DNA from: Candidatus Abzuiibacterium crystallinum
Lineage (GTDB): Bacteria; Omnitrophota; Omnitrophia; Omnitrophales; Abzuiibacteriaceae
Direction: 5' to 3'
NCBI GenBank assembly: GCA_002787155.1
Contig: PCVY01000023.1
Location: 6,828-70,827, forward strand
DNA length: 64,000 bases
The stretch's first letter is position 1, and every line of letters begins with the position of its first letter. The notes beneath the pieces were generated by a model. The model was not told the DNA's origin. It worked only from the letters and a program-made list of their open reading frames with translations, and searched no databases. Shown piece after piece: positions 11,460-46,700 of this stretch. Both the position numbers and the translations under genes were made by a program.

Positions 11460-11626
11460 CCAGAAACCGGTTTCATAAGTCCTCGTAAACCTAATAAAGA
11501 CATGTCATTGCGAGCTGAAGGCGAAGCAATCTCAGGTTTTAAAGAGGGATTGCCGCGTCGCTCCTTCGGAGTTCCTCGCAATGACGTGAATAAGGTAACT
11601 TATGAAGCCGCTTCCAGAAACCGGTT
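11460..11626. mobile_element. MITE-like palindromic element between the ATPase and platform genes
   Basis: The core has nested inverted repeats: GTCATTGCGAG (11504-11514) / CTCGCAATGAC (11575-11585), and GAAGCAATC (11523-11531) / GATTGC (11548-11553). Outer inverted repeats are TTCATAAG (11472-11479) / CTTATGAA (11599-11606). A 13-nt direct repeat CCAGAAACCGGTT flanks it at 11460-11472 and 11614-11626. Confidence 0.6.
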
Positions 11627-11714
11627 GCCAGTCAGCAGGTTAGTGATTCAGAAAATTTCAGCGGCACCTGGATTCTGGTTGCTGTTTTCCGGTTACTTGC
11701 TAAAGGGAACACAC

Positions 11715-12956
11715 GTGCCCATTTATCGTTATAAAGTCAAAACCGCGCAAGGTGAAGTGGTCACCGGTGCGATTGATGTTGAGAACAAGGAGTCGCTTCA
11801 AAAACAGTTGCGCACGCAAGGCCTGAGGCTTTTAGCGGCACAATTGGTTTCCACCAAGCCTGTTCCGGATGAAGACCGGTCCCTTCTGGTCGAACAAAAA
11901 AGAATCCGCGTTTCAAAAGCCCGTGTCCGCGATGAAGATATTTTAATGTTTACCCGTGAATTGCACAGTCTGGTCCGCTCCGGCATTCCGATCTTAAGCG
12001 GACTGCATTCCATGGCAGCCTCCACGAGTCACCGGACGATTAAAAATGTTGTTCTGTCTTTAGCCAATGATGTGGAAGCGGGCGAGCGGCTCTCAGATGC
12101 CATGCGCCGTCATCCGAACGTTTTCGAAGAAGTCTATGTGAGCAGCGTGGTAGCCGGTGAAGCGGCAGGGCAATTGCCGGAAGTATTAAGTCATTTAATT
12201 TCACTGCTTGAGCACCGGATTGAAACGCGAGGCGATATTCAAACGGCGACCCGTTATCCGTTAATTGTTTTAATCACGCTCGGTATTGGGTTTGGGATTA
12301 TCATTAATTTTGTCATTCCAAAGTTTGCCGGTTTCTACGCCAAATTTAACGCCGAACTTCCGCTGCCGACAAGGTTTTTAATTGCCTTGGGTCATTTGAC
12401 TTCCCAGCACGGTCTCGCTATGTTGGTCGTGCTTACTATTTGTATTTTCGCGGTTCGTATTTTTCTGCGTACGCCGATCGGAAAAAGTAGGTGGGACCAG
12501 CTCACGCTTCAAGTGCCTGTTTTTGGTCCGCTGTATCATAAAATTGCGTTATCTACTTTTGCAGCAACACTTGAGATGCTATATCGAAGCGGTGTTCCTA
12601 TCACGGAAGCTTTGCGTGTTGCCGCGCATGTGACCGGTAATGATATCGTAAGGCGCGGTGTGATCGACGTGCGGGAAGGTGTTTTGGCAGGCGAACCGAT
12701 TGCGGCGGTCATGAAACGGCATGCGATTTTTCCTTCGCTCATGGTGCAAATGATGTCCACTGGGGAGCAGACGGGTAACTTGGATCAATTGTTGCGTGAT
12801 TTGGCCAATCATTACGACCGGCAAGTCAAATATGAAACCAAGAACCTGACCACTTTAATCGAGCCCATGCTGACCATTTTATTAGGAGGGATGGTGCTGG
12901 TATTTGCCCTGGGTATTTTCTTACCCATGTGGAACATGATTCATCTCTTCAGATAA
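11715..12956 (+). CDS. GspF/PilC-family inner-membrane platform protein
   Basis: The listed ORF is 11502..12956, but its first ~70 codons are the translated MITE (MSLRAEGEAIS...). A GTG at 11715 is preceded by AAGGGA 6 nt upstream and gives MPIYRYKVKTAQGEVVTG, a typical GspF N-terminus, for a product of ~413 aa. Two T2SSF repeats are evident. Confidence 0.85.
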   Translation: MPIYRYKVKTAQGEVVTGAIDVENKESLQKQLRTQGLRLLAAQLVSTKPVPDEDRSLLVEQKRIRVSKARVRDEDILMFTRELHSLVRSGIPILSGLHSMAASTSHRTIKNVVLSLANDVEAGERLSDAMRRHPNVFEEVYVSSVVAGEAAGQLPEVLSHLISLLEHRIETRGDIQTATRYPLIVLITLGIGFGIIINFVIPKFAGFYAKFNAELPLPTRFLIALGHLTSQHGLAMLVVLTICIFAVRIFLRTPIGKSRWDQLTLQVPVFGPLYHKIALSTFAATLEMLYRSGVPITEALRVAAHVTGNDIVRRGVIDVREGVLAGEPIAAVMKRHAIFPSLMVQMMSTGEQTGNLDQLLRDLANHYDRQVKYETKNLTTLIEPMLTILLGGMVLVFALGIFLPMWNMIHLFR

Positions 12957-15453: not shown

Positions 15454-15478
15454 GGGGTCAGGTCCCGGACCTGACCCC
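15454..15478. repeat. REP-like 25-nt perfect palindrome
   Basis: GGGGTCAGGTCC-C-GGACCTGACCCC. It lies 18 nt after the upstream stop (15436) and 4 nt before ATG 15483. Confidence 0.9.
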
Positions 15479-15482
15479 TGAA

Positions 15483-16043
15483 ATGGATGACATGTTAAGT
15501 CGAATGATGCAAAAAAGAAGAGGGTTTACCCTTGTCGAACTGGTGATGGTGATTGCCATCATCGGGATCATGGCAGGCCTCCTTGGCCCTTTTTTGATTG
15601 TCACCGCTGATGCGCTGGATTTAATGTCCGTACAGTCCAATCTACAGGAAAGCGCTCAGGCGGCACTGGAACGCATGAGCCGTGATATTCGGCGGCTTCG
15701 GGATGATGAAAGTGTGGTGAATGCATCTTCCAGCTTTTTTTGGTTTTATGATGTGGATGACCGTCAAATGATTTATATTTTGGTCGGCAATACTTTGGTC
15801 CGGGTGATTTTTCCCGTTACACTTCCGCTGACTGTTCTAGCCGATCACGTTCAAACACTTTTGTTTCGCTATTATGATGACGATGGAAACCTCATTCCTT
15901 CTCCTGTGGTCGGATTGGGAACCGCCACCAATATCCGCCGCGTTCAAGTCGATATTCTTTTTGCAGACGGCAGTAAAAATTTAGTCGTGGAAGATAACAT
16001 TAGACCGAGAAATTTAAGACATGAATCCGATCGATTCTTTTAA
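15483..16043 (+). CDS. Minor pseudopilin (GspJ/PilW-like)
   Basis: 186 aa. It has MQKRRG|FTLVELVMVIAIIGIMAGLL followed by LQESAQAALERMSRDIRRL, a GspJ/PulJ-type pattern. Confidence 0.72.
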   Translation: MDDMLSRMMQKRRGFTLVELVMVIAIIGIMAGLLGPFLIVTADALDLMSVQSNLQESAQAALERMSRDIRRLRDDESVVNASSSFFWFYDVDDRQMIYILVGNTLVRVIFPVTLPLTVLADHVQTLLFRYYDDDGNLIPSPVVGLGTATNIRRVQVDILFADGSKNLVVEDNIRPRNLRHESDRFF

Positions 16044-17517: not shown

Positions 17518-17906
17518 TGATGAGTGAAAAAAATCAACCCAAACGCCAAATTAATTCGCGTCAGGTACCGCGGGTGCCTGTCCAAGGCAAAATCCAACTT
17601 GTCATTTCACCCCGTATGCAAAGTGCGGTTGGCTTGGTCCAGAAACGCATTGAGGGCGAACTGACCGATATGAGTACGCTGGGTTTGGGGATGACCTCCG
17701 GCATTTTTTTACCCAAAGGGTCAAGAATTCAAGGCCAAGTCAGCTCAGCAAGGATTTTTAAATCCCGGCCGCTCCGCTTTGTCGGCACGGTGATGAACAT
17801 TGGCATGCAATCGGGTCATCGTTACCGGGTTGGGATTAAGTTTGAACGGATCAAGTCTCATGATCGCGGCCTCATCCAAAACTTCATTGACCGTGAGTCA
17901 ATTTAA
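17517..17906 (+). CDS. PilZ domain protein (c-di-GMP receptor)
   Basis: RxxxR (RQVPR) and DxSxxG (DMSTLG) motifs are present at the correct spacing. The start MMSEKN overlaps the upstream stop (TAATG). Confidence 0.75.
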   Translation: MMSEKNQPKRQINSRQVPRVPVQGKIQLVISPRMQSAVGLVQKRIEGELTDMSTLGLGMTSGIFLPKGSRIQGQVSSARIFKSRPLRFVGTVMNIGMQSGHRYRVGIKFERIKSHDRGLIQNFIDRESI

Positions 17907-17911
17907 TTATC

Positions 17912-19771
17912 ATGACCAGGATGTCCCCGCGTTTTTCTCTGTCTCAAGATCATAAAAAGCTTGGGCCCTTTATCAGTTTCTTCCTCATGGCTTTGGTTTT
18001 GCTGGTATTTTTTCAGGTCCGCACGTTCGAATTCATTAATTACGACGATCAAACCTATGTAGCGGATAATCCCCATATCACAGACGGCCTCACGCCTCAA
18101 GGTGTTGCGTGGGCCTTCAAGGCCGATTTGGTGAGCGATTCGCCAAATGCCGATTATTGGCAGCCGCTCACTTTTATTTCGCGGATGATGGATATCTCGC
18201 TTTTTGATCACCGTCCGAGCGGTCATCATTTGATGAATGTTTGGTTTCATTTGTTTAATACGCTGATTCTTTTTGTCTGGCTGCGCCGCTCAACCGGATC
18301 CATTTGGGCAAGCGGACTTTGCGCCGCTTTATTTGCGGTTCATCCGCTGCAAGTCGAGCCGGTGGCTTGGGTCACTGCACGCAAAGACCTGTTGAGCACT
18401 TGTTTTGCTTTGCTTGCTTTGTGGCAATACGATGGTTATGTTCAGCACCGCCGGAAGGCTGCTTATGTTTTAGTTTTTGTCTTATTTCTGCTCGGCATTT
18501 TTGCCAAACCGATGGTGATGACACTGCCGATTTTGTTCTTGCTGTGCGACTTTTGGCCTTACAAACGTTTTAAACAAGCGACCGCCCGAAACTTGATTGT
18601 TGAGAAAGCGCCTTTTCTTATTTTGTCAATTTTTTCTCTTTTAGTGACACTCAGGACACAGTCCTTTGTTTATCAGCTTGATTCCTGGCTCGTCATGATG
18701 AAGCGTATACCGGCCGCATACGTCTGGTATCTATTTAAATTCTTCTTGCCATTCAACTTGGCTTTGCGAAACGGCCAGCTATTCTATGAACCGCTCATGT
18801 GGCAGTGGTTGTTAGCGGCAGGGTTTTTAGCGGGTTTGTTGACAGCGGCCATCCGGTATCACAAACAAGCGCCTTACGTTTTGTTTGGCGTCCTTTGGTT
18901 TCTCGTGACGCTTTCTTTGGTGACTTTCATGCGTGGTTTTAGCGACCGGTTTATGTATTTACCGATGATTGGACTGATCACAGCTTGTGTTTGGTTGGCT
19001 CATGATTTAATAAACTGTCTGTCATTGTCCGCCAAAGGCGGATCCGTCCTCCGGCGGACGAGTGTTCAAGCGACAGTTGTTTCTCTCGTCATTATTTTCT
19101 TAAGCTTCCTGTCATACCGCCAAACCCGTTACTGGAAAAACAGCATCACTTTATTCGAACATGCGATTGAGGTGACCCAGCACAATTACATTGCGAACAT
19201 CAATTTAGGCAGTGCTTTGGTGGTAGACGAATGGCGCCAAGAAGCCAAACAACCCAAACCGGATGTTCAAGAAACTGCAACGCATGATCCTGTGTTTCTC
19301 AATCAATTGGGATATGCATGGGATGAGAGGGGAGACTACGAAAAAGCCATCCGTTATTACCGTCAAGCTGTCGCGGTCAATCCTGATTATGTGTTTCCAT
19401 ATAATAATTTAGGTGTGACGCTTGGCAAACAAGAAAAATACCAAGAAGCCATTCAACAGTTTCAAAAAGCACTTGCCCTGAATCCTCAATACATTGCAGC
19501 GCGTTACAATTTAGCCAAAGCGTATGCCATTGAAGGTAAAATGGAAGACGCCAAAGCCGCTTACGAAAAAGTACTTTCAATCGATCCGGAACATGTTGAT
19601 GCCTTGACCAATCTAGGACACATCTTCACAAGCGAATCTCAATATGCCCAAGCGATTTCTTACTATGAACGTGCGCTTCGGATTTCTCCGCGTCACGGCA
19701 AAGCCCGCTACGGCCTTGGCGTGGCTGAGAGCCAACTCGCACATCTTACTCATTCCGGATTTGCCGAATAA
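17912..19771 (+). CDS. Polytopic membrane protein with C-terminal TPR repeats (TMTC/PMT-like GT-C glycosyltransferase candidate)
   Basis: 619 aa. The N-terminal ~400 aa has many TM segments, with YDDQTYVADNPHI and HHLMNVWFHLFNTLILFVWL, as in TPR-linked GT-C-like proteins. The C-terminus has at least five TPR units (AIRYYRQAVAVNPDY..., AIQQFQKALALNPQY..., AKAAYEKVLSIDPEH..., AISYYERALRISPRH). Confidence 0.6.
   Translation: MTRMSPRFSLSQDHKKLGPFISFFLMALVLLVFFQVRTFEFINYDDQTYVADNPHITDGLTPQGVAWAFKADLVSDSPNADYWQPLTFISRMMDISLFDHRPSGHHLMNVWFHLFNTLILFVWLRRSTGSIWASGLCAALFAVHPLQVEPVAWVTARKDLLSTCFALLALWQYDGYVQHRRKAAYVLVFVLFLLGIFAKPMVMTLPILFLLCDFWPYKRFKQATARNLIVEKAPFLILSIFSLLVTLRTQSFVYQLDSWLVMMKRIPAAYVWYLFKFFLPFNLALRNGQLFYEPLMWQWLLAAGFLAGLLTAAIRYHKQAPYVLFGVLWFLVTLSLVTFMRGFSDRFMYLPMIGLITACVWLAHDLINCLSLSAKGGSVLRRTSVQATVVSLVIIFLSFLSYRQTRYWKNSITLFEHAIEVTQHNYIANINLGSALVVDEWRQEAKQPKPDVQETATHDPVFLNQLGYAWDERGDYEKAIRYYRQAVAVNPDYVFPYNNLGVTLGKQEKYQEAIQQFQKALALNPQYIAARYNLAKAYAIEGKMEDAKAAYEKVLSIDPEHVDALTNLGHIFTSESQYAQAISYYERALRISPRHGKARYGLGVAESQLAHLTHSGFAE
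19028..19058. repeat. GC-rich motif TCCGCC..GGCGGATCCGTCCTCCGGCGGA, copy in the TPR membrane-protein gene
   Basis: The 22-nt core GGCGGATCCGTCCTCCGGCGGA lies at 19037-19058 and is read as GGSVLRR. The same core occurs three times in the giant gene. Confidence 0.8.
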
Positions 19772-19803
19772 TCATTAATAGGTTCTATTAACATTTCTAA
19801 CCG

Positions 19804-19960
19804 GTCATTCTGAGTCCCCTCTGCCGAAGGCAGTGGAGGACGAAGAATCCAGATAAAAAGAGATCCTTCACGGCGTTTACCCTGAGATGCTTCCCGCCAG
19901 AAGCGAGGCTCGCCAAAGGCGGGGCTTCGCTCAGCATGACATCGAAGGGCTCAGGGTGAC
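19804..19960. mobile_element. MITE-like palindromic element (GTCATTCTGAG ... CTCAGCATGAC type)
   Basis: Terminal inverted repeats: GTCATTCTGAG (19804-19814) versus CTCAGCATGAC (19930-19940), plus a second copy CTCAGGGTGAC (19950-19960). There is an inner GAAGAATCC / GATCCTTC pair. It is intergenic, and the antisense ORF 19797..20006 is its translation artefact. Confidence 0.6.
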
Positions 19961-20114
19961 GCTTTGCCATGGCAAACGTCAACAGAACCCAGTCTTTTCC
20001 CAACAAATTTTTCTCTTTTCGTTAAAGATTTCCGTCTCCTGTCGATATTTATGATAGTACAGGTAAGAGTACTTCCTTGTTCCTGGTTCCTGGTTTTAAA
20101 GAGAGCGACTCTGA

Positions 20115-20366
20115 ATGACATTGATCCGAAAAGGGCAGCTGGCAAAAGAGCTTAACATTCCTTGGCCGACCGTGAAGTATTACACGGCAGTGGGGCTTTT
20201 CCCCGTGGCGGGCAGAACGCCCAATGGTCAGCACTTGTACCACTTACCGCTCATTCGAGAAAAATACGAACGCATCAAAACGCTGAAACGTCAGCGTTTG
20301 ACGATCGGTGAAATTATCGATCGTCTCAAAATGGAGAGTATTGTCCAAGAAACAAGCGCGGTTTAA
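20115..20366 (+). CDS. MerR-family HTH DNA-binding protein
   Basis: 83 aa. [45 protein letters not shown]...[10 protein letters not shown] fits the MerR winged-HTH pattern. Confidence 0.7.
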
Positions 20367-20389
20367 GCGCGCGCGAGAGGAGAACGGCG

Positions 20390-21445
20390 ATGACGATTAT
20401 CACGATTGCAAACCAAAAGGGAGGTTGCGGCAAAACCACCACCACCGTTAATTTGAGTGCCAGCTTGGCCGAGCGCGGTTACAAAGTATTATTAGTTGAT
20501 CTTGATCCGCAGGCGCACGCCACGCTGGGTTTGGGTATTGATCCTTATGAGCTCAAAGAATCCATTTATGAGATTCTCATTCATCCCGACAGGCATATTT
20601 CGGAAGTGATCCGCCGCACCTGTGTGCCTAACCTTTTTATCGCGCCTTCCAACATTCTCTTATCCGGCGCGGATTTGGACCTCAACAATGTGGTGGGACG
20701 CGAAGGAGTTTTAAAAGACCACTTACGCAAGCTCGATCCGTCCTACGAGTTCGTTTTAATTGATTGTTCACCGTCGCTCAATATCGTGACGGTCAATGGG
20801 TTAACGACAGCCAATTATTTGTTGATCCCGGTGCAAGCGCAGTACTATGCCATGGAAGGGATGAAGCAGCTGTTTAATACCGTTGATATTGTGCGCCGGC
20901 ATCTCAATCATGAGTTAAAATTGCTCGGTATTTTACTCACCATGTATGACGGACGGACCAATATCTGCCGCGATGTCGCACGCGGGATTCGCGAGCATTT
21001 TCAAAACAAAGTCTTCCAAACCATGATCAATGTCAATGTCAAAATTACAGAAGCGCCCAGTGCCGGGAAACCCGTCACCATGTACGACCCTTGTTCGATT
21101 GGTGCGCGTGATTATCAACAATTGACAACGGAAGCTTTGGCCATTCTCAACGGACGCCCTTTTGCACGGCCCGAAATTCAGGAAAAAACCAACGGGGCGC
21201 TGCCGGCACCGGCCGTTGAAGTCACTTCCGAGCCCGCCGCGGAAAAAAGCGAAAATGCCGTAGTGCAGGAAGAAGTTCAGACAGAGAAAACGCCTGATCC
21301 ATCACCGGTTTCGCCGGCACCCGAACCCTCTGCCTCAGAGCCTGCTGAAATTGAAACCCAAACATCCAAAGTCCAAGAAACGCCAAAGACTGAAGAAACC
21401 GAATCCGTTGATATTGAAAAAAAAGACGAAGTAAGCGTCGAATAA
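20390..21445 (+). CDS. ParA/MinD-family P-loop ATPase with a long acidic Pro/Glu-rich C-terminal tail
   Basis: It has the deviant Walker [18 protein letters not shown], then [12 protein letters not shown], then VLIDCSPSL. The last ~100 aa are low-complexity P/E/T/S. Confidence 0.85.
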
Positions 21446-21454
21446 ATTATTCAC

Positions 21455-23320
21455 ATGGCTAAGAAACCGACAGGGCTCAACAAGAAAGTCTCATCCATTT
21501 TTTCGGGCATTCCTTCATTCGGTGAAGAGAAGGAATCATCGTCACCTGAAGTCAAGCCGGAGGCGCAGGCAGCTGCTTCACTGAGCGGCGCCAAACCTGC
21601 TCAATTGCCACGGCCCATGGAACCAGGCCATCCCATACCAAAGTCAGAATTAAAATTTAATCTTGGCTCTCTTTTTCAAGTGCAGCCTCGTCCCCGGTTA
21701 ATTTTTGATATCGGGTCCAGCAACGTCAAGGCTGTCTTAATGAAACCGGGCTTGCGGTCATGGACCATACAAGATGCGCGTGACAGTGAGTTTACCGTTG
21801 ATCATCAAGGTGTTCGGCGGGCAGCGGGGGATGACATGGTGCTGGCATTAAAAGAAATTGCGGCGGCGCTTGATCCCAAACATGAAGCGTCGGTAGGGAT
21901 GGTGATTGGCAGCGCGAACTCATTTTTCAAAGTGATCCCGGCACCCGAGGGGCCAGAGAACACGTGGCGCGAAGAAATCGTTTGGCAGTTAGCGGAAACA
22001 GCTCCCTTTTCTTTGGAAGAAGCCGAGGTGGAATGGGTGAAAGTGCCTCGGTTGAACTTGCCTCATATCAAAGGTGTGCCGCTGCTCGCTGCTGCGGTTG
22101 AACGTTTTGAATTAGACCGATGGATGACTATTTTTCGGAAAGCCGGTTTGCATCTGGAGCTGATTATCCCTGCACCGCTTGCGGTTGAATCAATGCTCAC
22201 CCGTTATCGCCAGCCGGCAGCCGAATCAATGTTGATTGCAGATTTTGGCGCCGAACACACGCAGTTTTACGTTTTTGTGAAGGGGCAGTTTGTACTCATG
22301 AGAGATATTTCGTTCGGAACAGAACTCGTGATTCGCTCTTTAATCGGACCAATTCAAATTGATAATGAACGAGTTGAAATCGGGTTTCAGGAAGCCAGCA
22401 CCTTGGTTCGGGAATATCAATTATTTGCCGGAATCGGGCAGTATGATTCTGCGCAGCCCAAGCGTTCCCAGTTGGCGGCCCGTGTTCGCCCGCACATGGA
22501 AAAATTGGTCAACGAAATCAAGCGGTCTATCACATATTACCAGACAGAATTTCATGGCCCCGAAGTTTCTAATGTTTTCATTATTGGCGGCGGCGCCGGT
22601 TTAGAGGGGATCGATCAATTTTTATCGCATGAACTCAATGCGTCGGTTTCACGCGTTGACTTGGTCAAAGATTTTACTTGGCACTTGGATCCGCATCTAT
22701 TGAAACACACCCCGTCACTTCGCAGGACTTTCGGGGTGGTGCTGGGCGGCGCATATGTTAAATCACCTCGTATTAATTTTGCTGATTGGCAGGACCGATG
22801 GGCCTCCGTTGCCGCCCAAATCAAACAATGGTCGAAAGTAGCCATGCTGGGTGTCATGGTTGTCGCCGGCATAGGCTGGTCGTCTTTGACTGTGCAGCAG
22901 ACATTGCTTGATCGTGAATTGAAGGCTGTGCAGCAGAAAATTGATCAAGCGGGTCCCGTGACGGCTAAATTAACCGAATTAGAAACGTTAGGGCAGCAAA
23001 TCGAATTACGCCAGTCGCTTCTTGCGCAGGCTTTTGGTTATGAGCCTTATTGGGGAGGTATATTGAGGGAATTGAGTCATTTGATTCCCCGGGAACTGGT
23101 TTTAGATACCTTCAGTGCGGCAGAGAACAAGGGAGTGCCCGAAATCATTTTAACCGGGCATGTTCAAGTTTCGTCCAGACCCAGTGACATGGTGGTATCG
23201 GAATTGCTGCATGTTCTAAACGAATCACCCTTTTTTTCTTCGGCCCAGTTGATTAAGCGAACTCAGCAGGAAGAAGAAACAACCAAAACGACTTTTAGTG
23301 TCAAAGCAGATTTAGCCTAA
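21455..23320 (+). CDS. PilM-PilN fusion (actin-like pilus assembly ATPase fused to a TM/coiled-coil PilN-like module; GspL-like topology)
   Basis: 621 aa. It has a low-complexity N-terminus, then a PilM-like region (LIFDIGSSNVKAVLM ... IADFGAEHTQFYVF ... IIGGGAGLEGI), then a TM helix (VAMLGVMVVAGIGWSSL) and a coiled coil. Confidence 0.7.
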   Translation: MAKKPTGLNKKVSSIFSGIPSFGEEKESSSPEVKPEAQAAASLSGAKPAQLPRPMEPGHPIPKSELKFNLGSLFQVQPRPRLIFDIGSSNVKAVLMKPGLRSWTIQDARDSEFTVDHQGVRRAAGDDMVLALKEIAAALDPKHEASVGMVIGSANSFFKVIPAPEGPENTWREEIVWQLAETAPFSLEEAEVEWVKVPRLNLPHIKGVPLLAAAVERFELDRWMTIFRKAGLHLELIIPAPLAVESMLTRYRQPAAESMLIADFGAEHTQFYVFVKGQFVLMRDISFGTELVIRSLIGPIQIDNERVEIGFQEASTLVREYQLFAGIGQYDSAQPKRSQLAARVRPHMEKLVNEIKRSITYYQTEFHGPEVSNVFIIGGGAGLEGIDQFLSHELNASVSRVDLVKDFTWHLDPHLLKHTPSLRRTFGVVLGGAYVKSPRINFADWQDRWASVAAQIKQWSKVAMLGVMVVAGIGWSSLTVQQTLLDRELKAVQQKIDQAGPVTAKLTELETLGQQIELRQSLLAQAFGYEPYWGGILRELSHLIPRELVLDTFSAAENKGVPEIILTGHVQVSSRPSDMVVSELLHVLNESPFFSSAQLIKRTQQEEETTKTTFSVKADLA

Positions 23321-23334
23321 ACACAGGACAACAG

Positions 23335-23946
23335 ATGGCGGTCAGACCCGAATCGCAAAAAATCGTTTTACAATGGGCTGTCAAAGAGAAAGTGGTATTG
23401 CACTTGTCTGTTTTGGCAGGGTTAATTGTTTTTGCAGCTTTCGCCGTGATAGGTCCGCGGATAGCTGATTTAAACAAACAAAAAGCAAAGTTAAAGGAGT
23501 TTAATTCTTTTTTACTGGGTACACAAGAAGCCGCGAAACGGCTGAGAAATCTAGAACAATTGCTCGCAGATCAGAGGCAGGCATTAAAAGAGCTCAACGC
23601 ACAAACGCTGAAACGAACTTCCATTGCTGCTATGCTGCAGAATTTTACGGCCGCTTCCGAATCACTGCCAATGACCATTTTGGACATCAGACCGGATGAG
23701 GCACCCGCGGTCAATGATCCAAAGGCCGTCGTGCCGGCCTGGAAAGAAAACGGCTTTGATCAAAAGTTATTGAATATTCATTTTCAATGCCGGTACCAAA
23801 CGCTGGGTCGTTTACTGGAACGCTTAGAAGAAACACCTTTAATTTATCATGTCACTAAACTTGAAATGGGGACCAAGGATTTAATCGCACCTAATTTGGA
23901 CATTTCATTAACGTTAGCTTCTTATGTGGAAAATTCACCTCACTAA
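23335..23946 (+). CDS. PilO-like pilus assembly protein
   Basis: 203 aa. It has one N-terminal TM helix, a coiled coil (KQKAKLKEFN...LEQLLADQRQALKELN) and a C-terminal ferredoxin-like region. The position after pilMN supports the call. Confidence 0.55.
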   Translation: MAVRPESQKIVLQWAVKEKVVLHLSVLAGLIVFAAFAVIGPRIADLNKQKAKLKEFNSFLLGTQEAAKRLRNLEQLLADQRQALKELNAQTLKRTSIAAMLQNFTAASESLPMTILDIRPDEAPAVNDPKAVVPAWKENGFDQKLLNIHFQCRYQTLGRLLERLEETPLIYHVTKLEMGTKDLIAPNLDISLTLASYVENSPH

Positions 23947-23955
23947 GCAGATACC

Positions 23956-24489
23956 ATGGCACTCAGCAAAAAAGATAAAATTCAATTAGGCATCATCGTG
24001 ATGATGGTCGGACTGATTATTTTTAAATTGCCGGACTTCGTGCGGTTCGTGAGCGGTACCACACAAAAAGCCTCCTCAGGCGTTCCAAATGCCTTACCGG
24101 CACTGCCCGAGAATGCGCCCGATTTTTTGAAGGCCATGGTCATGCAAGTACGCAGCGGCACCGCTCATCCTCATTTCAATTTAACGCAAGAGCGGGCTCT
24201 TAGAGAACAGCAAGCGCTTCTCAAAGAACAATCCTGGGGAAGAGATCCGTTTTTTTCGATCCCCATTGATGAATCGCGGTCCAAAAAAATCGAAGTCACC
24301 GACAGCTCCGAATTGGTTCTCAAAGCGATCTCATTAAAAGGCACAACCGCCATGGCCATTATTAACCAAACGGTCATTCATGTCGGTGATGAAATTTTGG
24401 GAATGACTGTCAAATCCATTGAGCGCGGTCGTGTGATTTTAGCGAACAGCGAACGCGAACGTGTTTTACGTTTTGGAGGCATGACATGA
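23956..24489 (+). CDS. PilP/GspC-like small periplasmic protein
   Basis: 177 aa. It has an N-terminal TM helix and a C-terminal beta-rich segment (LKAISLKGTTAMAIINQTVIHVGDEILGMTVKSIERGRVIL), as in PilP / GspC HR domains. It overlaps the secretin gene by 4 nt. Confidence 0.45.
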   Translation: MALSKKDKIQLGIIVMMVGLIIFKLPDFVRFVSGTTQKASSGVPNALPALPENAPDFLKAMVMQVRSGTAHPHFNLTQERALREQQALLKEQSWGRDPFFSIPIDESRSKKIEVTDSSELVLKAISLKGTTAMAIINQTVIHVGDEILGMTVKSIERGRVILANSERERVLRFGGMT

Positions 24490-26147
24490 CAAAACCAATC
24501 CAGTTTGGTTTTGTTTTTCTTATGGTGTTGGCATTAACCGTCTCGCAGGCACAGGCAGACTACTCGCCGTCAACCGTTCAAAGCGATGATTCATTGGTGA
24601 CGCTGGATGTTCAGCAAACTGATATCAGAAGCGTGCTTAATCTGCTTGCCGAGCAGTACGACTTGAATATGGTGATTGATGATGACGTGACCGGCCTGAT
24701 CACCATTCGTTTGCAGGATGTCTCACTGCACGGAGCGTTACAGGCCATTTTATTATCGCACGGGTACGATTATGAAACCGTGGATAACATTGTCCGGATC
24801 GCTCCGACCGAAGTCCTGGCAGGCGAAAGAGTCATTCGGCAGGAACGGCAGGGGATTGAACCGCTTGTTTCTGAGGTGATTACGCTGCAATATTTAGACG
24901 CCAGCGACATACGCCCAGCCATTGAGGCGCTTCTCTCAGAGCGCGGTTCCATCAGCGTGGTTGAACGCAAGAACTTTACCGGGTTTCAGTTTGGTGCGCA
25001 GGCTGTTCAAACCGGATCAAGCACTTCCGGCGCAGCTGGTGAAGGATTAATTCGTGATAGACGCAAAGGAGATTCTACTGCACGGTCACGATTTTTATTG
25101 GTGACCGATACGCGCAGCCATGTGGAACGCATCAAGAGCGTGATCCGCAATGTTGATGTCAGGCCGCCGCAAATCCTGATTGATGCCAAAATCTTAGAGG
25201 TAGAAACAGACACCTTAGAGGATTTGGGTATTGAGTTTGATTCGCAAGTGACGCCGCCGACAGAAAATGATCATAACAGCGTGTTAAATTTTGATTTTAA
25301 TCAGGGCGTGAGCGGCAAAACTTTTCCCACGTCAAGTGATCAAGGGCTGAATGTTCAGTTTCAAAAAATCATCGGTGAGAATTTTCAAGCGGTTTTACAT
25401 GCGCTGCTGCAGGATGAGCGAACACGAACGCTTTCCAGCCCGCGTATTTTGGTTTTAGACGGACAAGAAGCTGCCATTTTGGTAGGGGAACAGTTCCCGA
25501 TTTTCGAAAGCACCGTTTCCGATCAAGGAACGGCCACCGAATCACTTTCTTTTTTCCAACCGATCGGTATTAGTTTGCAAGTGATTCCGCAAATTACCGC
25601 TGACAATAATATCCAGATGATCATTCACCCGACCGTCAGCTCAGTCGGTAATTTTGTGACGGGCAGCACCGGGCTCACTCAGCCCCGTATTAACATTCGC
25701 GAAGCTGACACTCAAGTGCTCGTGAAGAACAGCGAAACGCTTGTGATCGGCGGGCTGCTCGAAGACATTACAGTCGAATCTGAATTTAAGGTGCCAATTT
25801 TAGGGTATATTCCTTATCTGGGAAAACTATTTACACGTACCCGGACCGATGTGGATCAAAGAAATCTCATTGTTTTTATTACGCCTCAAATCATCAGCCC
25901 GGATGTTGGGTTGAGTGACAAACGGGCCAAGGAGGCATTCCTGGGCATTGTGGATTCGGATCGTTACGGTTTCTTGCATGAAAGGCGTGAGAATGTTAAA
26001 ACACATATCCAAGAAGGTGTGCGTGCTTTTCATTTAGGTGATTACGAAGTGGCCCGGCAGGCATTTGAACGCGTTCTGCGCTTGGATGATCAAAATCAAA
26101 CCGCCCGTGAGTACCTCAATAAGATCTACAACGCCCTCAGAAATTGA
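24486..26147 (+). CDS. Secretin (PilQ/GspD family) with a C-terminal TPR-like extension
   Basis: 553 aa. It has a signal peptide (FVFLMVLALTVSQAQA), N-domains, and a secretin core: TRTLSSPRILVLDGQEAAILVG...LVIGGLLED...KVPILGYIPYLGKLFTRTRTDVDQRNLIVFITPQII. Confidence 0.9.
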   Translation: MTKPIQFGFVFLMVLALTVSQAQADYSPSTVQSDDSLVTLDVQQTDIRSVLNLLAEQYDLNMVIDDDVTGLITIRLQDVSLHGALQAILLSHGYDYETVDNIVRIAPTEVLAGERVIRQERQGIEPLVSEVITLQYLDASDIRPAIEALLSERGSISVVERKNFTGFQFGAQAVQTGSSTSGAAGEGLIRDRRKGDSTARSRFLLVTDTRSHVERIKSVIRNVDVRPPQILIDAKILEVETDTLEDLGIEFDSQVTPPTENDHNSVLNFDFNQGVSGKTFPTSSDQGLNVQFQKIIGENFQAVLHALLQDERTRTLSSPRILVLDGQEAAILVGEQFPIFESTVSDQGTATESLSFFQPIGISLQVIPQITADNNIQMIIHPTVSSVGNFVTGSTGLTQPRINIREADTQVLVKNSETLVIGGLLEDITVESEFKVPILGYIPYLGKLFTRTRTDVDQRNLIVFITPQIISPDVGLSDKRAKEAFLGIVDSDRYGFLHERRENVKTHIQEGVRAFHLGDYEVARQAFERVLRLDDQNQTAREYLNKIYNALRN

Positions 26148-31425: not shown

Positions 31426-31444
31426 ACAGTTCTTCACTATTCCG

Positions 31445-31526
31445 TATATATATGAGTCATCGGGGAATCAATCCCCGCTGGCTCAGGGTGAGAGGTCTGG
31501 AAACTCCCAGACCCCTCATATATATA
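31445..31526. repeat. 82-nt nested palindrome (outer 12-bp AT stem plus two GC hairpins) downstream of the LysE-like gene and upstream of the giant gene
   Basis: Outer stem: TATATATATGAG (31445-31456) / CTCATATATATA (31515-31526). Hairpin 1: CGGGGA-atcaa-TCCCCG (31461-31477). Hairpin 2: GGTCTGG-aaactc-CCAGACC (31494-31513). Confidence 0.6.
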
Positions 31527-31701
31527 AAATATGACCTAATATATGACTATTATAAAATAGAATTATATTATATTAATGTAAGTTGTTTATATATAATGAC
31601 TTACATATCATATTTTTTTCATTTCTATCCTTGTAATTTACCGGATATGCGGTAGACTTTCTAAAGTGCTTTAGTAAGTCAGTTCGCATGGTAAATAATG
31701 C

Positions 31702-34700
31702 ATGTTCATCCCTAAAAATATCCAGAGAGCCATAGCCTTTTTTCTTGCCATTTCATTCTCTTTATCGAATGGCCCAACGCTTTTACTTGCCGAAACTTAT
31801 CCGGGAAGCAGCCTGCCATACCATGCGAGCTCTGTGAATCCAAATGCTATTTTGGATTCCCTTAAGCTTCCCGGTGAGTTAGGCATTGTTCAAGAGGTTT
31901 ATAGCGCGGTACCAGGTACAACGGTGCCAGGTTCACAGAACCCGGCACCGGCTGTACCTGGTACCGGAATTGGTTTCAAAGTTAATCAACTGGTCATCCT
32001 CGTGCAAAATGCCCACGCCAATTATGATTCAGAGTCAAACGTCCGCAAAATCATCCAGTTCTTCCAAGAGCACTATCAATTAGGACTTGTTTTACTGGAA
32101 GGCGGGGAAGGCAAGTTAGACCCGCTTTTTTTTAAATCTTTTCCCGATGGCAAAATAAAAGAAAAACTGCTGGATCAATATTTAAAACATGGGGATTTAC
32201 AAGGCGGTGAAGCAGCAGCCATTTTGAATCATTCAAACAACCCAACGAGTTATTGGGGCATTGAAGATGAAACTTTGTACCAGCAAAACAAAGCGGCCTT
32301 CTTAAAAGCCATTGTTCAAACGGATCAAATCTTAAAACAGCTTACTCAAAAAGAAGCCGCACTCGAGGAAAACATTGCTTCATTGCCTGAATCATCACAA
32401 ACCTTTTACAAGGCTTGGCAGGCTTTTCATGCGGATGAGATGAATTTGCTGGAATACGTGAAAACGTTAGCTGAGCATACATCGGGTACCGGTTCTGTTG
32501 ACAGTGTCATTCCCGCTCGTCTTTGGCGGGAATCTACTGTGATCGGTGCTCTTGTGCGCTCATTTCCCGAACTTGCCAAATTGTTGGAAGTAGAGAAAGG
32601 CGAGCAAGCCCTCCAAAAAAGCGAAATTGACATGACCGTCAACCAACTGTTGAAAGAATTTCAATCAACTGCGCTGCCGGCGCTGTCAGTCGAATCACAG
32701 AAAGAATGGGGCCAGCGGATCCAGGATTATCAAACCGGCCGGCTCGGCGTGGGTTTTTTGATCAAACAGCTTGAAAGTTTTCTTACCATTCCCGATGTTC
32801 TAAAACCTGCTATTCAGCACGCCCAAACCATTTCTTCCGTCCGGGGAACAGAAATATTCCATGAACTTGAGCATTTAGAGAATGCTGTTCGCGATCAATT
32901 GCCGGGGCGTGAGCGCCTTCATCAAGTTAACGAACTGCATCTCTTGAAACGGTTTGCGCGTTTAGAAATTACACATGAAGAGTGGAAGGTCATTGCGAGC
33001 GCAGCGAAGCAATCTCAAGACCAAGGATTGCTTCGGTCATTTCATTCCCTCGCAATGACAGAAATGCTTAAGAACCATTTCACTTTCTACCAACTCGCAC
33101 TCAAGCGTGACGGCATTTTATCCGGCCGCATTCTCGAAATCATGCGCCGTGAATCTCAAAAAGTTTCGCTCGTGGTGACCGGCGGTTTTCATGAAAGCGG
33201 TATCAAAGAGCGCCTCCGGGCAAACGGCACCGCTTATGTTTTGATTTCTCCTGCGATTCAGGAAGTCGGATCAAACGAGGCTTACCTCAATGCCATGCAC
33301 GACAAGCGTTCTTTTATGAAATATTTTCAAGGCAGTTATTGGGATGCTTTGGCAAAGGATTACATGCAGCAATCGTCAGCGGCTGCGGGTCCGCAGGAAG
33401 AAAAGTTTATTTTTAAGCAGTGGCGCGATCAACTCATCCAAAACACGCTGCAGGAGGGCAGAATCACGCAGGCAACGCGTTACACGCGCTATTTGGATTC
33501 ATTTTTACAAACCGAGGGAAAACCAGCGGATGACAAAGTTGGCAGAAAAACTCAATTAGAAGGTGCTTTCGAAAGTTTCCTTTCAACTTATTTTAAACAG
33601 CATCAAGCTGATTTGAATGCCAAGCTTGATCATTTTGCGGCAGGTTTCAAAAATATGCTCACACAGGGCACCTTCACGCAAGGGGCGGTCGAAGCCTTGT
33701 TGCGTCAAACACAAGTCCTGCAAACGGCTCAACTCGCACCGGATCTCGCTTTGATTCCGGCCTGGAACCAATTTCATTTAAGTGAAGCAACGATTGAAAC
33801 ACTGCCTGATATCAACCAACCTCTTTGGCTCGAGCACAAGCAAAAATCCGAACTCAGGAGTGAAGAGGTAGACTCTGATTATTGGTATGCTTATGGTGAG
33901 GAATTCCTTATTTTGATGGAAGAGGTGGGGTACCGGATAGATGAAACTGACCTTGAAGGTGATATAACTCTGGAGGTAGAGACAGTATCAGACGATCGCT
34001 TTCCTAAAGATTTTAGCAAATTAGCTAAAAGTGTTCCCGAATCGGACCTCACACGTTTACGCGACACATATATCCATATTCTAAAGAATGCCATTGGGAA
34101 AAGTCGAACACTTGAGGAGATAGTTGAAGGCTTGAGCACTTTAATATTAAGGCAGGCAGGAATTCGATTAAATGACAGAAAATTAATTGAAGCCATTACT
34201 GATATTTTACTAACCTATAAAGAAAAAGGGGTGACGGGACCCACCCTGCAGCTGCGCCACGTTTATCTATTTCCAAGATATGGTGATGTGAATGAAATCA
34301 TTCAATTACTGGCCAACCATCGAGGGAAACGCGGAACCTTGAGCCAAACCCAACGGCAACTGATTGCACAGCAACTCGAAAACATGAAAGAGCAATGGCA
34401 AGCAAATTACGAAAGAGCTCAAGCCGAAAAAACCGAAGAACCTAAGGTTGATGGTCAACCCAAAACCGGTGAATCGCTTTGGCTGGAGGGTCAACCAAAA
34501 CCCGAACTCAGAAACGCAAAAGATTATACTCAGATGAGTGTCAAAGAATTGCTTGTAGAACTTCAATCAACTCGAAGTCAAAGTAGTCAAGTCAATTTTA
34601 AAATACTTAGGATTACCAGCGAGCTGGAGCAGCGCTCAGAGAAGATGTTAGACAGCGAGATAGTGGCGACTATCAATGCTTTACTTTCTGCATTGATGTT

Positions 34701-43700: not shown

Positions 43701-46700
43701 TGCCGATCGAAATCAGCAGGCACGCGCGTTGGCAAGGGGAGGAGCCGCGCAAGCACTCAATCTGTTAACCATTCGCTTGCTGGGTTTGCCAGCGGGGCGC
43801 ACCATGGAACAACAGTGGCAGGAACTTTTTAAAATCACCGAAAAAGGAATTCCCAATCTTCAGAAACCGGAACATTTAAACGGCGCGCGCGCCGAAGATA
43901 TTTTGGCGGGTCTGGCAGAAATTTCCAAGACGTCTCAAGGACAACTCAAAGAAGTGGTGGCTGAGCTCATCCAGGGACGGTTTAAATTGCTGGTGAATCA
44001 CGATGTCGAACGGTTTAAACAAATTGGCATCATCATTGGTTTTACGGGGATTGACGGTTTTGCAAAGATTCCGTTCGGCCGCTTGCGGGAAAAATATCAT
44101 CTGACCGAAGGCAGTGAAGAGGAAGGCCGGCTGCTCAAAATCGTTGCCCAAATTTCCAGAACAGCCCGGGAAGGGACAGGCGGCCTCATTGAAGAAGTGT
44201 TTGATCTTTACAGCCAAGAAGCCGGCGAACATTTGGACGATTTGAACAAACTGCTTCAGGCATTTAGTTACTTTGTGCGGCTTGTGAATTTTCACCACGA
44301 TTATGAACGGCTTGTCTTAGAAGGTGATATCGGCAAGGTGAACAATGAAGCGCTCTTTGTCAGCTTGCGGGATTTGAAGCGCACACTTGATATCGTGAAG
44401 AAAAACGATGCCAAAGGGATGGACATTCGCGATGCCATTGCTTCTGCTGTCAAGCGCCGCTATTACAACCGCTTGAGCATCGAAGATCGGGGTATTGTTC
44501 GTGATTTAATGGCGAGACACCGGCTGATTCATGAAAACGATCTCCTGGATTTTGATTATGTGATTGATGGTTTCAAAAACGGCAGTTCCCGAATTCGTAT
44601 CTATCGCAAACGTAAATCAGGCCCGGCGCGGTTTAAACGAACGGAAGTCAAGCCCGGCGAATATAAGATGGAATTAATTCAAGAAAGCGTGGGAAAACCC
44701 GAACTGCTGCTCGAGATTCCGCTGGCTCAGCCGCTTGCCAACGTTGACCCGAAAATTATTTTAAACGAAACGACCCGCCGTAACCTGGCCAATATTCTGG
44801 ATGCATTGGAAGTGGAGGAGGGAAAGCGCTTTAATCCGGTGCTCGAATTTGGCGTGACTTCAGGCGGCAAAAGTACGACGGCAGCGTTGGTTGCCAAGAT
44901 TCTGGGCGTTGGTTTTACGCGCATTCAAATCAATGAACGCACCGATGAATTTGACCTTTTCGGATCGTTTCAGCCTTATGAAATCAATATCACGTTAGAA
45001 GAAGCCATCCAGCTTTTGCAGGAAGCGCTGGCCACGAACAATTATAACGGTCTTGAGGATGTGTTTAGTCGTTTAAAGTCGGATCAAACGGGACAATTTT
45101 GGGAAAATTATTTCAATGCTCAAGAACGACAGACAATCGAGCTTGGAAAGGACAGCCGTTATCCCCAGCGTTCGGTATTGGAGCGTCAACGAGCCGCCAT
45201 TCGTGATAAATTAAAACAATTGGCGGATAAACAGTTAGAACTTGCTCAATCGCTCAAAAGTTTAAGCGCTCAGGAACGCCGCCTCATTGATTCCAAGACA
45301 GATAACCCTGTCTGGCAAGCGCAGCTTGCCCAGCTGCGCCGGGAAGAAGCGGAAGGTTTTGATCAGCTGAACCGCATCAAATCCATTGCATTTATGTTAA
45401 ACCACGAGGTGGGCCTTCGGTATAAGGAAGGGCGTTTTCTCACGGCTTACAAGCGCGGAGATCTCATTCTGCTTGATGAAGTGAATTTAGCCAACGAAGA
45501 AATGCTGGGCGTGCTTTATCAATTACTCACTTTGGGTTATTTGGAATATAACGGCAAAGTGATCGAACCGCCTTTGGGCAAACAAGCCCGCATTCTAGCC
45601 ACGGCCAATCCCTCCGGTTATGCGGGCCGCAGACGCATGAGCGAAGCTTTTATGAACCGTTTTGAAATTATCCATGTTGATGAAATGACGGATGAGGAAA
45701 TGCGCGATATCGTGGTTGGGCAAATGATGAAAGATCTCATCGCCTCAGGCCGCTATACAGCCGGGGATTTTGAACAAAACTCGGATGAAGCGCCGGAAGT
45801 ATGGGATAAAAAAATCAACAAGATTTTACAGGAAGAATATGGTATTACGCGCGAAAGCACTCGATTGTTAGCTGGAGTTCAGCGAAAATTTAACAGCATT
45901 TTGGCGACGGGCAGTTTTCCGCGCATGGGATCCGACTCCAATTATGTCTTCACGCTTCGGAATCTTCAACGGATCGCCGGCGATGTGAAAGAACGCAAAG
46001 AAAATGGCGAACGCATCACCCTTGAAACCTGGATTCGGGAAGCGTACGGCGAATATGCCGGCGTCCTCATGCGGCCCAGCACACAGCCTTCCTACACCGC
46101 AGAGCGGCTTAAGCCTGATGAATCATTGCCGGCGGAACATCATTTATGGGATGATCCGGATTACAAAACCATTCGGCGGGTATTTACGACTTTCATGGGT
46201 GAATTGATTGCCGGAGAAAGTCATCAAAGTTACGATGACGCTTTTGACGAACTCATTCGCCGGCATTTTGAAACCATTCCGTATGTCTATGACTCAACCG
46301 CCCATGCCATCAAGCTGGACGGTCTTCTTACCCAAGGTGCTGAGCCAAACGATCAAAACCCCATTGAACCTTTAATCGAAGTGGGGTCAACCAAAATGGT
46401 TCAAAGGCAAATTTTAAAAGGCATTCGCCGGAATATCCCAACGCTCCTTGTCGGTCAATCCGGCGGCGGTAAAACAGAAATCATCGGCGACTTAGTCAAT
46501 CGCCTTGGCCGTCAATATATCAGCGTGTCTTTGGGCGATGCCACACTGGAAAGTCTGATCGGCACCATGGAATACAACCGAATGGAAAAACGTTTTGTTT
46601 ATCGGCGGGGTGTGCTCGTCAAAGCCATGGAAGAAGGTTCGGTTTTGGTGCTGGAAGAACTCAACATGGCTAAATCGGGCATATTAGAAATTTTGAATGA

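Follow-up and report, generated by a model that had tools for sequence, protein, structure and literature searches.

Giant proteins of the phylum Omnitrophota, in which signal peptides are common and among which AAA_5 domains are listed, have been described in two preprints (West-Roberts et al. 2023, and a complete-genome study of 2026), and their N-terminal regions are said to 'generally lack identifiable domains' (West-Roberts et al. 2023). Here we analyse what we take to be the N-terminal region of a protein of the same phylum and scale, encoded at positions 31702-33860 of a 64,000-nucleotide stretch of DNA from Candidatus Abzuiibacterium crystallinum (GenBank assembly GCA_002787155.1, contig PCVY01000023.1; hereafter the window), together with palindromic repeats that are translated within it. 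The closest described counterparts of the protein region are found in the TIKI superfamily. Its erythromycin esterases (Ere) are stand-alone enzymes of ~400 amino acids (aa), among which EreC is described with a major and a minor lobe and has the catalytic residues E47, H50, E78, R261 and H289 (PMC7979712). Catalytic residues are also reported for Bcr135 of Bacillus cereus (H85, E113) and for RRSP (E3900, H3902, E3930, H4030; PMC6254334), an internal effector module of MARTX toxins that is freed in host cells.

The closest described counterparts of the repeats are, besides REPINs, the CGTC-tagged repetitive extragenic palindromes (REPs) of several phyla, whose units bear an unpaired CGTC (or TGTC/CCTC) tag at the head, whose stems start with A-T pairs, whose tail is CCA-like, which mostly occur as head-to-head dimers and which have no associated transposase (Di Nocera et al. 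2013, PMC3733652). They lie mostly in intergenic DNA near the 3' end of the upstream gene. Some fall within open reading frames (ORFs), each dimer then contributing 20-30 aa; uvrA has repeatedly been struck in this way, and the Rickettsia elements RPE-4 and RPE-6 correspond to these REPs (PMC3733652). RPE-1 (Ogata et al. 2000, via PMC10969869) is likewise a palindromic repeat found in frame in many genes, at sites compatible with fold and function, but it differs from the elements described here in its length of ~150 bp, in its sequence family and in its restriction to Rickettsia.

We consider it probable that a giant protein of Candidatus Omnitrophica has its N-terminal 'head' encoded at positions 31702-33860 of the window, and that in this head an export signal precedes a TIKI/Ere-type domain of about 480 aa whose loops carry repeats as passengers. 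No start codon comes between an in-frame TAA (31696-31698) and the ATG at 31702, and the frame that this ATG opens runs to the window end without a stop (10,766 codons), so that the protein exceeds 10,766 aa; the program-made list of ORFs lacks it because it runs off the window end. The translation starts MFIPKNIQRAIAFFLAISFSLSNGPTLLLAETYPG, and aa 1-3358 are a 100% match to GenBank PIW65547.1, a partial "hypothetical protein" of Candidatus Omnitrophica. Two peptides picked out in a preliminary description of this DNA, VILVQNAHANYDSE...GLVLLEGGEG and LVVTGGFHESGI...AYVLISP, are indeed encoded, at aa 98-137 and aa 490-517. Much further along, the giant ORF has six Pfam AAA_5 (dynein/midasin/MoxR-type) stretches at 46384-49269 and 51442-51861 (aa ~4895-5856 and 6581-6720), with weaker matches to AAA_6, AAA_7 and DYN_lid.

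Relatives of the head are numerous. A word-indexed homology search returned only a handful (22-43% identity), and a profile search returned 9,298 cluster representatives (clusters at 50% identity) at E <= 1e-3, of which 6,126 reached E <= 1e-30. Among the 150 best profile matches, the domain is almost always N-terminal, starting within the first ~80 residues of proteins of up to 7,864 aa. It also opens the complete proteins P0006 (1,758 aa), P0007 (1,833 aa, with a GT1 glycosyltransferase domain) and P0005 (1,077 aa), and versions of ~500-550 aa may, to judge from their sequences, stand alone. Ten of the 24 short members of alignment A4 also match Pfam PF23202 (PAH_ZNF598, paired amphipathic helix; best E 3.4e-6), which the window protein does not.

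We aligned 153 sequences, 20-47% identical to the window protein. Q102 is kept in 94% of them and H105, E133, R469 and H497 in 99% each; A104, G134, G168, G186, E188, Y193, F462, Y463, D470, G494, G495, F496 and P517 are conserved as well. The spacings of 3 (Q102 to H105), 28 (H105 to E133) and 28 (R469 to H497) are identical to those of E47/H50/E78 and R261/H289 in EreC, and the His-Glu spacing of 28 is also that of Bcr135 (H85/E113) and RRSP (H3902/E3930). Hence, with the exception of Q102, the head has by sequence the catalytic His-Glu pair, the second His and the Arg that stabilises the oxyanion in Ere enzymes, and this EreC pattern with its identical spacings places the head in the TIKI/Ere superfamily. 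Structure comparison led to the same superfamily. The model of the head has an alpha/beta core with a central parallel beta-sheet flanked by helices, and its structural matches (scores in brackets) were the Ere-like B. cereus proteins 2rad_A (9.5) and 2qgm_A (9.0), HopBA1 (5t09_A, 9.2), ChaN (2g5g_X, 8.8), EreC (6xcq_A, 8.7), a TraB-family protein (8bqs_DQ, 8.6), RRSP (5w6l_A, 7.8) and PMT (2ebf_X, 6.6), all eight of which belong to the TIKI superfamily according to PMC6254334. An independent model of the homologue P0001 gave the same six top matches, and the top two Foldseek matches were both EreC (probability 0.66 and 0.51). We conclude that, at the level of fold and motif, the head is a previously undescribed, very large family within the TIKI/erythromycin-esterase superfamily (TraB/PrgY/GumN, ChaN, EreA-C, RRSP, HopBA1). 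The preliminary description had loosely likened the region to TraB/GumN/Tiki proteins; the fold and the catalytic motif bear this out, but a significant match to a TraB/GumN-like profile was not found.

The head is nevertheless distinct from each described branch of the superfamily. Compared with an Ere set comprising EreA, EreB, EreC and B. cereus Bcr135 and Bcr136 (PDB 6XCQ, 6XCS, 2RAD, 3B55, 2QGM), it has no detectable profile similarity, has Gln in place of Glu47 of EreC, has a much larger helical lobe (~255 aa) and, rather than standing alone, follows a signal peptide at the N-terminus of proteins of several thousand residues. Among the toxin and effector domains of TIKI fold are RRSP (5W6L), HopBA1 (5T09) and PMT C1/C2 (2EBF); unlike RRSP within MARTX toxins, the head comes directly after the predicted Sec signal, and a membrane-localisation domain was not detected. 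No member of the head family reaches the Pfam gathering threshold of TraB/PrgY/GumN/Tiki (PF01963) or ChaN (PF04187), from which it also differs by its large helical insertion. The first motif of the head family is Q-[DN]-A-H; that of the TraB/Tiki family is usually G-x-x-H.

By analogy with EreC and RRSP, a water molecule would be held in place and activated by H105, E133 and H497, with Q102 orienting H105; the oxyanion would be stabilised by R469, and the helical lobe between the core halves would serve as a substrate-binding lid. The substrate would be an ester or a peptide bond. The head may thus catalyse metal-independent hydrolysis of ester or peptide bonds by a His/Glu-activated water, on the premise, taken from the analogy, that the five residues cluster in space.

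The first 30 residues resemble a cleavable Sec signal peptide, as had been proposed on the basis of a basic n-region, a hydrophobic core and an LLA|E site, and these features proved to be shared by the relatives of the protein: the n-, h- and c-regions and the Ala at -1 are kept across the 153 aligned sequences. In the window protein, a basic n-region (K5, R9) is followed by a 12-residue h-region (AIAFFLAISFSL) and the c-region SNGPTLLLA, with a predicted cut after A30, before E31. Position 9 is K or R in 133/153 family sequences, positions 10-21 are hydrophobic, and position -1 (A30) is Ala in 106/153 and Gly or Ser in 23 more; in the family consensus, K/R is followed by 12 hydrophobic residues and N/S/T, and the cut has a mostly small residue at -3 [S/A/G/L], an aromatic one at -2 [Y/F/W] and Ala at -1, followed by Q or E. 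A simple charge-plus-hydrophobicity test was passed by 119 of the 132 complete N-termini of the family. The layout is that expected of a signal peptidase I substrate (positive n-region, h-region of 7-15 residues, polar c-region, small residues at -3 and -1), and is canonical across the family; we infer that the N-terminus is cleaved during export of the giant protein. Across all 10,766 aa there is no later transmembrane-like segment (Kyte-Doolittle hydropathy >= 1.9 over 19 residues), which fits export. We had considered as transmembrane candidates the Gly/Ala-rich hydrophobic stretches at aa 1800 and aa 9939, which are parts of a recurring LW...SELR motif described below, and the stretch at aa 6608, which falls within an AAA_5 module. 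The giant ORF (31702-63999) is also very poor in cysteine, with 4 Cys in 10,766 aa (0.04%) against 61 in 8,657 aa (0.7%) for the 22 other ORFs of the window, a ~19-fold depletion; the median for members of the head family is 0.075%. Cysteine is often excluded from exported proteins, and its depletion here therefore fits export too.

The third subject is a 71-bp palindrome at 32989-33059, which lies between the two core halves and was described earlier as an element translated in frame without breaking the ORF. This holds. Both pairs of arms, the outer one (11 nt, GTCATTGCGAG / CTCGCAATGAC) and the inner one (10 nt, CGAAGCAATC / GATTGCTTCG), are 100% complementary, it folds better than shuffled sequences (z = -3.9 as RNA, z = -5.2 as DNA), and its 26-nt head was found in 0/100 shuffles of the window. 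It translates as VIASAAKQSQDQGLLRSFHSLAMT, ending 9 aa before the F462-Y463...R469 motif. The accompanying label of a MITE (miniature inverted-repeat transposable element) fits less well, since the whole element is a hairpin of two REP units and not a pair of terminal repeats around unrelated sequence. Inspection of the copies revealed no consistent flanking direct repeats (target-site duplications); a related transposase was not looked for. From its sequence, the element is better termed a head-to-head dimer of CGTC-tagged REPs.

This assignment draws on other copies of the element. A second member of the family, 82 bp long, lies at 11504-11585 of the window between the genes for T2SSE and T2SSF. 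A scan of species-representative genomes for two arms 35-65 nt apart found at least 120 contigs with further copies (loci L005-L124), the matches listed coming from Alpha-, Gamma- and Deltaproteobacteria, Bacteroidota, Chloroflexi, Planctomycetota, Cyanobacteria, Patescibacteria, Zixibacteria and Rickettsiales. The 124 listed copies are 62-87 bp long and share one layout: arm, variable bulge, GAAGCAATC, variable central stem-loop, GATTGCTTC, bulge, arm. Like the CGTC-REPs of PMC3733652, they have a stem that starts with A-T pairs, a CCA-like tail (CCA in 69, CTC in 16) and a head-to-head arrangement, and in 116 of them the tag is CGTC or TGTC (GTC follows C in 88 copies and T in 28). The window's own copies have stems ATTGC.../...GCAAT and ATTCCCGC/GCGGGAAT and tails CTC and CTA. 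Both the element in the head and the listed copies form inverted head-to-head pairs that make one long hairpin. In total, the 64-kb window holds two REP dimers and one single unit; the tag is TGTC in the intergenic copy and in the single unit, and GGTC in the dimer within the head. That dimer differs from the REPs of the published survey, which did not include Omnitrophota, by its atypical G before GTC and its CTC tail, and the loop of the ATTGC-type unit, mostly 12 nt and sometimes 18, is longer than the 4-5 nt described there; odd loops were, however, noted for CGTC-1 of Bradyrhizobium (PMC3733652). The CGTC-1 REPs of R. conorii encode an in-frame 'VIPAKAGI' (PMC3733652, supplement), and the single unit in the window encodes 'VIPAR..'. 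The exact ATTGCGAG-type unit was not found by string search in the text or tables of PMC3733652, and a string search of the literature for the REP arms found primer coincidences only. A scan of the whole window with Rfam (at gathering thresholds) and for tRNAs gave no match; thus, its palindromes are not known RNA families.

Copies listed from other genomes fall in ORFs of at least 300 aa in 18% of cases, against 64% for random positions, a comparison of stop-to-stop ORFs that is qualitative because long spurious ORFs in GC-rich genomes confound it. The same 11-nt arms occur, identically, in at least 120 genomes across many phyla. REPs are normally lineage-specific, and sequence identity across phyla is unusual for them. 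The arms also embed GCGAAGC, a sequence that forms an unusually stable DNA mini-hairpin.

Two further palindromes are translated within the head. Site 1 has 14-nt arms (CGGTACCAGGTACA / TGTACCTGGTACCG, 100% complementary) around an inner pair GGTGCC / GGCACC, a DNA fold of -29.6 kcal/mol (z = -8.1) and the translation AVPGTTVPGSQNPAPAVPGT. Site 2, the single REP unit, consists of the tag TGTC, a stem ATTCCCGC, a 9-nt loop, the stem GCGGGAAT and the tail CTA, between flanks ACAGT / ACTGT, and reads ..SVIPARLWRES.. in frame. Residues align to the site-1 segment (aa 71-90) in 6-11% of homologues and to the site-2 segment (aa 271-280) in 10%, and the site-1 loop, 30 aa long in the window protein, has a median of 8 aa in homologues. 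Judged from the alignment, sites 1 and 2 are clearly lineage-specific and missing from ~90% of homologues. On either side of each insert, the window protein aligns colinearly with its homologues. In the structural model of the window protein, pLDDT falls below 50 at aa 73-91 and aa 262-280, a further low-confidence stretch lies at aa 440-445, and the block-mean pLDDT is 49-63 over model residues 401-420 (aa 436-455), at site 3. The three low-confidence stretches thus coincide with the three inserts, and the model of insert-free P0001, which has the same order of strands and helices, has no such stretch inside the domain. The shortest homologues, such as P0001, have no element at site 3. These observations show that three hairpin-forming repeats, two of them CGTC-tagged REPs (one single, one dimer), have landed in surface loops of the head. 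They would be translated as loop extensions, as passengers and not parts of the fold, and the survivors would be those that kept the frame, brought no stop and fell in loops that tolerate 12-24 extra residues.

Other members of the family carry REP peptide signatures at the same three loops, among them VIAS..AKQS..RND, SLRG..RSNP..PRND, VIPAEAGIH..FRGND, VILSEAKDL, CHSERSEES and RGQTRV..GLTP. In the DNA of 80 related metagenome loci, found with alignment A1, we identified seven full dimers in frame (Table 1). The proteins of loci L128, L130 and L131 are 35-39% identical to the window protein, and yet their REP arms still match the consensus. Consensus arms in proteins so diverged, in differing frames and at differing sites, make independent insertions the simplest reading of this recurrence from sequence. 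That several REP families have struck the same three loops of one domain family is a difference from the CGTC-REPs described before. A dimer of the same family also lies in frame in two ORFs of uncultured Gammaproteobacteria whose proteins were recognised by eye, one UvrA-like (L042 2835-2921, VIASKAKQSHSTGSANNGIATSPLAPRND) and one like GMP synthase (GuaA; L037 4466-4543, VIARPRSGAAISKNSEIASEGAPRND).

Table 1. Features of the N-terminal region in the window, and full REP dimers in related metagenome loci (aa in the numbering of the window protein).
Feature	Position	Strand	Basis or remark
Predicted Sec signal peptide, aa 1-30	31702..31791	+	rules and family alignment
Head domain, aa ~50-535; TIKI/erythromycin-esterase-type alpha/beta core split by helical lobe	31849..33306	+	
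Insert site 1, ~aa 69-89; 60-bp palindrome, unclassified repeat family	31907..31966	.	14-nt arms, fold
Core N-terminal half, aa 92-200; Q102 (32005-32007), H105 (32014-32016), E133 (32098-32100)	31975..32301	+	conservation
All-helical lobe between core halves, aa 201-455 (~255 residues); holds insert sites 2 and 3	32302..33066	+	model secondary structure
Insert site 2, aa ~267-280; single CGTC-type REP unit	32501..32540	.	z = -3.5 (DNA fold)
Insert site 3, aa 430-453; 71-bp element, head-to-head dimer of CGTC-type REPs	32989..33059	.	
Core C-terminal half, aa 456-535; F462-Y463, R469 (33106-33108), D470, G494-G495-F496-H497 (H497 33190-33192)	33067..33306	+	
Helical C-terminal extension of head, aa 536-705; closer relatives only	33307..33816	+	alignments, column occupancy, models
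First junction motif copy PLWLEHKQKSELR, aa 707-719; closes N-terminal region	33820..33858	+	
L128, SLR..PRND	site 1 (aa 71-97)		full dimer in frame
L128, VIAR..PRND	site 2 (aa 263-285)		full dimer in frame
L130, SLR..PRND	site 1 (aa 75-93)		full dimer in frame
L130, VIAR..ARND	site 3 (aa 431-449)		full dimer in frame; same loop as in the window
L131, SLR..PRND	site 1 (aa 71-93)		full dimer in frame
L147, VIAS..PRND	aa 364-382		full dimer in frame
L179, SLR..ARND	after aa 532		full dimer in frame

Several results weigh against this reading of the region, and they concern in turn the head, the export signal and the inserts. For the head, Gln (Q102) stands in this family where the '2His/2Glu' set has its first acidic residue. 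Moreover, no significant profile link to any TIKI family (PF01963, PF05139 or PF04187) emerged: scans of aa 1-720 against Pfam and NCBIfam gave nothing at curated cut-offs and otherwise only noise, and PDB profile searches with profiles A1 and A4 gave nothing relevant to the head. The nearest approach was a weak match to PF04187 (the ChaN family of the Tiki superfamily) in 2 of 24 family members (best E = 0.032). It is because the head fails every sequence-profile test run that we call it a new family. It could also have the TIKI fold without being an enzyme, serving as a binding or scaffold module like ChaN, which binds haem, or PMT C1/C2. We think this unlikely, since conservation of H105, E133, R469 and H497 at 99% over 153 diverged sequences is what would be expected of catalytic residues, and since the head reproduces the EreC set down to the oxyanion-stabilising Arg.

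For the export signal, positions -3 and -2 are both Leu in the window copy, an arrangement weaker than the family consensus in which the Leu at -3 is tolerable if less than ideal, and the six AAA_5 ATPase modules of the same polypeptide, which need ATP, are hard to square with export to the periplasm. AAA_5 ATPases cannot function there. Given these modules, either the protein reaches a place that contains ATP, such as a prey cell, or its topology exceeds that of a simple signal peptide. The N-terminus might instead be an uncleaved membrane anchor or targeting helix, with the bulk of the protein, including the AAA+ ring, cytoplasmic or membrane-tethered; the ATP requirement, the weak L-L-A site and the lack of a second transmembrane-like segment that could bring an exported chain back to the cytoplasm would all agree with this. 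We nevertheless doubt it, because the h-region of only ~12 residues is of signal-peptide length, the hydropathy of the segment over 19 residues is only 1.65, the positive charges ahead of the h-region predict an N-in/C-out orientation, the [S/A/G]-[Y/F/W]-A motif followed by Q or E is conserved as expected for a cleavage site, and the whole protein is depleted in Cys. A cleavable signal peptide that directs export thus remains our preferred reading of the N-terminus.

For the inserts, the contrast at site 3 is not a clean one between insert and no insert. A linker of variable length is present there in all homologues (14-162 aa, with classes of ~25-26 aa, 47-48 aa and others), and in the window protein it measures 33 aa, of which 24 are REP-derived. 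Removing those 24 aa would leave only 9, and so the REP has probably replaced or eroded native linker sequence, and was not merely added to it. Hence, of the earlier proposal that a repeat was absorbed into the protein as a 24-aa segment, the repeat origin stands but a clean insertion relative to homologues does not. To claim that REPs are mobile in this lineage would require an empty-site allele, and none was found in a metagenome scan for the two flanks joined with a gap of 0-30 nt.

The palindromes could alternatively be kept for a function at the level of nucleic acid, as mRNA hairpins that pause translation during co-translational export, shield a long transcript or attenuate transcription. 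The perfect complementarity of their arms within coding sequence (11/11 and 10/10 at site 3, 14/14 at site 1) is compatible with this, as is the finding that all seven full dimers in the 80 loci fall in head-region coding sequence (six in the core and the seventh, that of L179, slightly beyond it), the flanks holding no full dimer; for other bacteria, a role of REPs as RNA structures has been suggested (PMC3733652). However, the inserts are missing from most family members, and their positions, frames and types vary among relatives in a manner that fits independent, recent, neutral insertions under a selection filter. The apparent enrichment is weak, since single REP arms are also present in the flanks of the relatives' loci; for the same reason, we dropped the idea of an enrichment of REPs in head-domain DNA and do not claim that this DNA is a preferred target. 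We therefore regard a retained nucleic-acid function as rather improbable. Much more improbable is that the fold ancestrally included the 24-aa segment as an integral part, the palindromic nature of the DNA being a coincidence: residues do align to aa 431-440 in 79% and to aa 441-450 in 53% of homologues, but these are unrelated linkers of several length classes, the element matches arm for arm an intergenic repeat in the window and copies in at least 120 unrelated genomes, its 26-nt head was never met among the shuffles, and model confidence falls at the site. That the element stems from an assembly join or a pseudogene, its in-frame reading being the product of repeat-induced misassembly, can be practically dismissed, for although repeats can cause chimeric joins in metagenome assemblies and the only other record of the gene, PIW65547.1, may stem from the same data, in every homologue the two flanks correspond, in colinear alignment, to the two halves of a single domain, the frame stays open for ~10,300 further codons, which together exclude it, and independent assemblies of relatives show the same type of in-frame insert.

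Passenger REPs in loops of an exported, hydrolase-like head therefore remain the account that we favour, and the sequence just past the head raises a question about what such a head might act on. The region is closed by the first copy of a motif ...LW-(G/A-rich)-(R/K)SELR..., which occurs 17 times in the giant ORF against 1.9 expected (at aa 717, 935, 1225, 1476, 1823, 2049, 2699, 3120, 3758, 7532, 7917, 8212, 8968, 9560, 9966, 10446 and 10482) and which reads more fully (D/E)xLW(L/T)xG - G/A-rich - (R/K)(S/A)ELR(T/N)(K)(D/N)Y..M..DELL. Across the family, [SAPT]E[LM]R is found 279 times against 69 expected (about four-fold), with Arg at -1 in 67%; the density of SELR-type motifs jumps just past the head, with a copy between aa 600 and 850 in 35 of 120 long members. 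The motif may mark module boundaries or processing sites. The AAA_5 stretches suggest, as far as sequence goes, a midasin-like ring of six AAA modules within a nearly Cys-free protein that opens with a signal peptide. We can only speculate, and hold it to be improbable, that the head is the built-in maturation protease of a secreted polyprotein, cutting at this motif. If it were, the giant Omnitrophota genes of this class would encode operon-like polyproteins whose modules, a six-AAA motor among them, are separated by cutting after export, and the REP-filled loops might in addition supply fast-evolving surface variation on the putative head protease.

In-frame insertion of REPs is already documented in other bacteria, although it is unusually frequent in this protein family, and the palindrome in the window is of a known REP class. 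In the literature searched, we found no account of Omnitrophota as a host phylum, of recurrence at three loops or of a head tied to giant proteins and the SELR motif; term searches of both preprints on Omnitrophota giant genes found no description of the head domain, the SELR motif or the REP inserts. Our analysis assigns to a large class of the N-termini of Omnitrophota giant proteins (at least 9,298 clusters at 50% identity) a predicted Sec signal and a domain of TIKI/Ere fold that resembles a hydrolase and has an intact catalytic set, and this raises the testable question of whether the giants are processed. It also extends to Omnitrophota the occurrence of REPs in ORFs, known from Rickettsia and other surveyed phyla. 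Three loops of one domain that were repeatedly struck by the same and by different REP families form a natural series on how far proteins tolerate selfish DNA. Finally, REP-derived peptides (VIAS..AKQS..RND, VIPA..AGI) can mislead homology searches and the calling of gene starts. The T2SSF gene of the window (ORF 11502..12956) is an example: the REP dimer at 11504-11585 overlaps its nominal ATG, so that the first ~28 residues (MSLRAEGEAISGFKEGLPRRSFGVPRND) are REP-encoded, and the true start probably lies downstream, for instance at the in-frame GTG at 11586.

The giant gene is preceded by an AT-rich intergenic region of 276 bp (31426-31701) with TATATA runs and an imperfect 22-nt inverted repeat (31445-31466 / 31505-31526, 82% complementary). 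No Shine-Dalgarno sequence was obvious by eye before the ATG at 31702, and promoter-like matches in front of the gene were no commoner than in shuffled sequence. Upstream on the same strand lies a cluster of the type IV pilus / type II secretion system (T2SS) kind (9773-26147), whose members include T2SSE, T2SSF, a ParA-like AAA_31 protein, PilM, a secretin and a PEGA-domain protein; genes for a phosphatidylserine decarboxylase, a CDP-alcohol phosphatidyltransferase and a LysE-type transporter are also found upstream. Other palindromic families occupy intergenic DNA of the window at 14401-14457, 15454-15478, 16049-16075, 13245-13350 and 14970-15072. They comprise one element with 24-nt perfect arms (TGGGGTCAGACCCTGACCTGACCC), two GGGGTCAGGTCC/GGACCTGACCCC hairpins and two elements of ~100 bp with CCCGTTAGAGA arms. 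The type with 24-nt arms encodes the peptide RGQTRV..GLTP, which is seen in site 1 of the homologue P0023.

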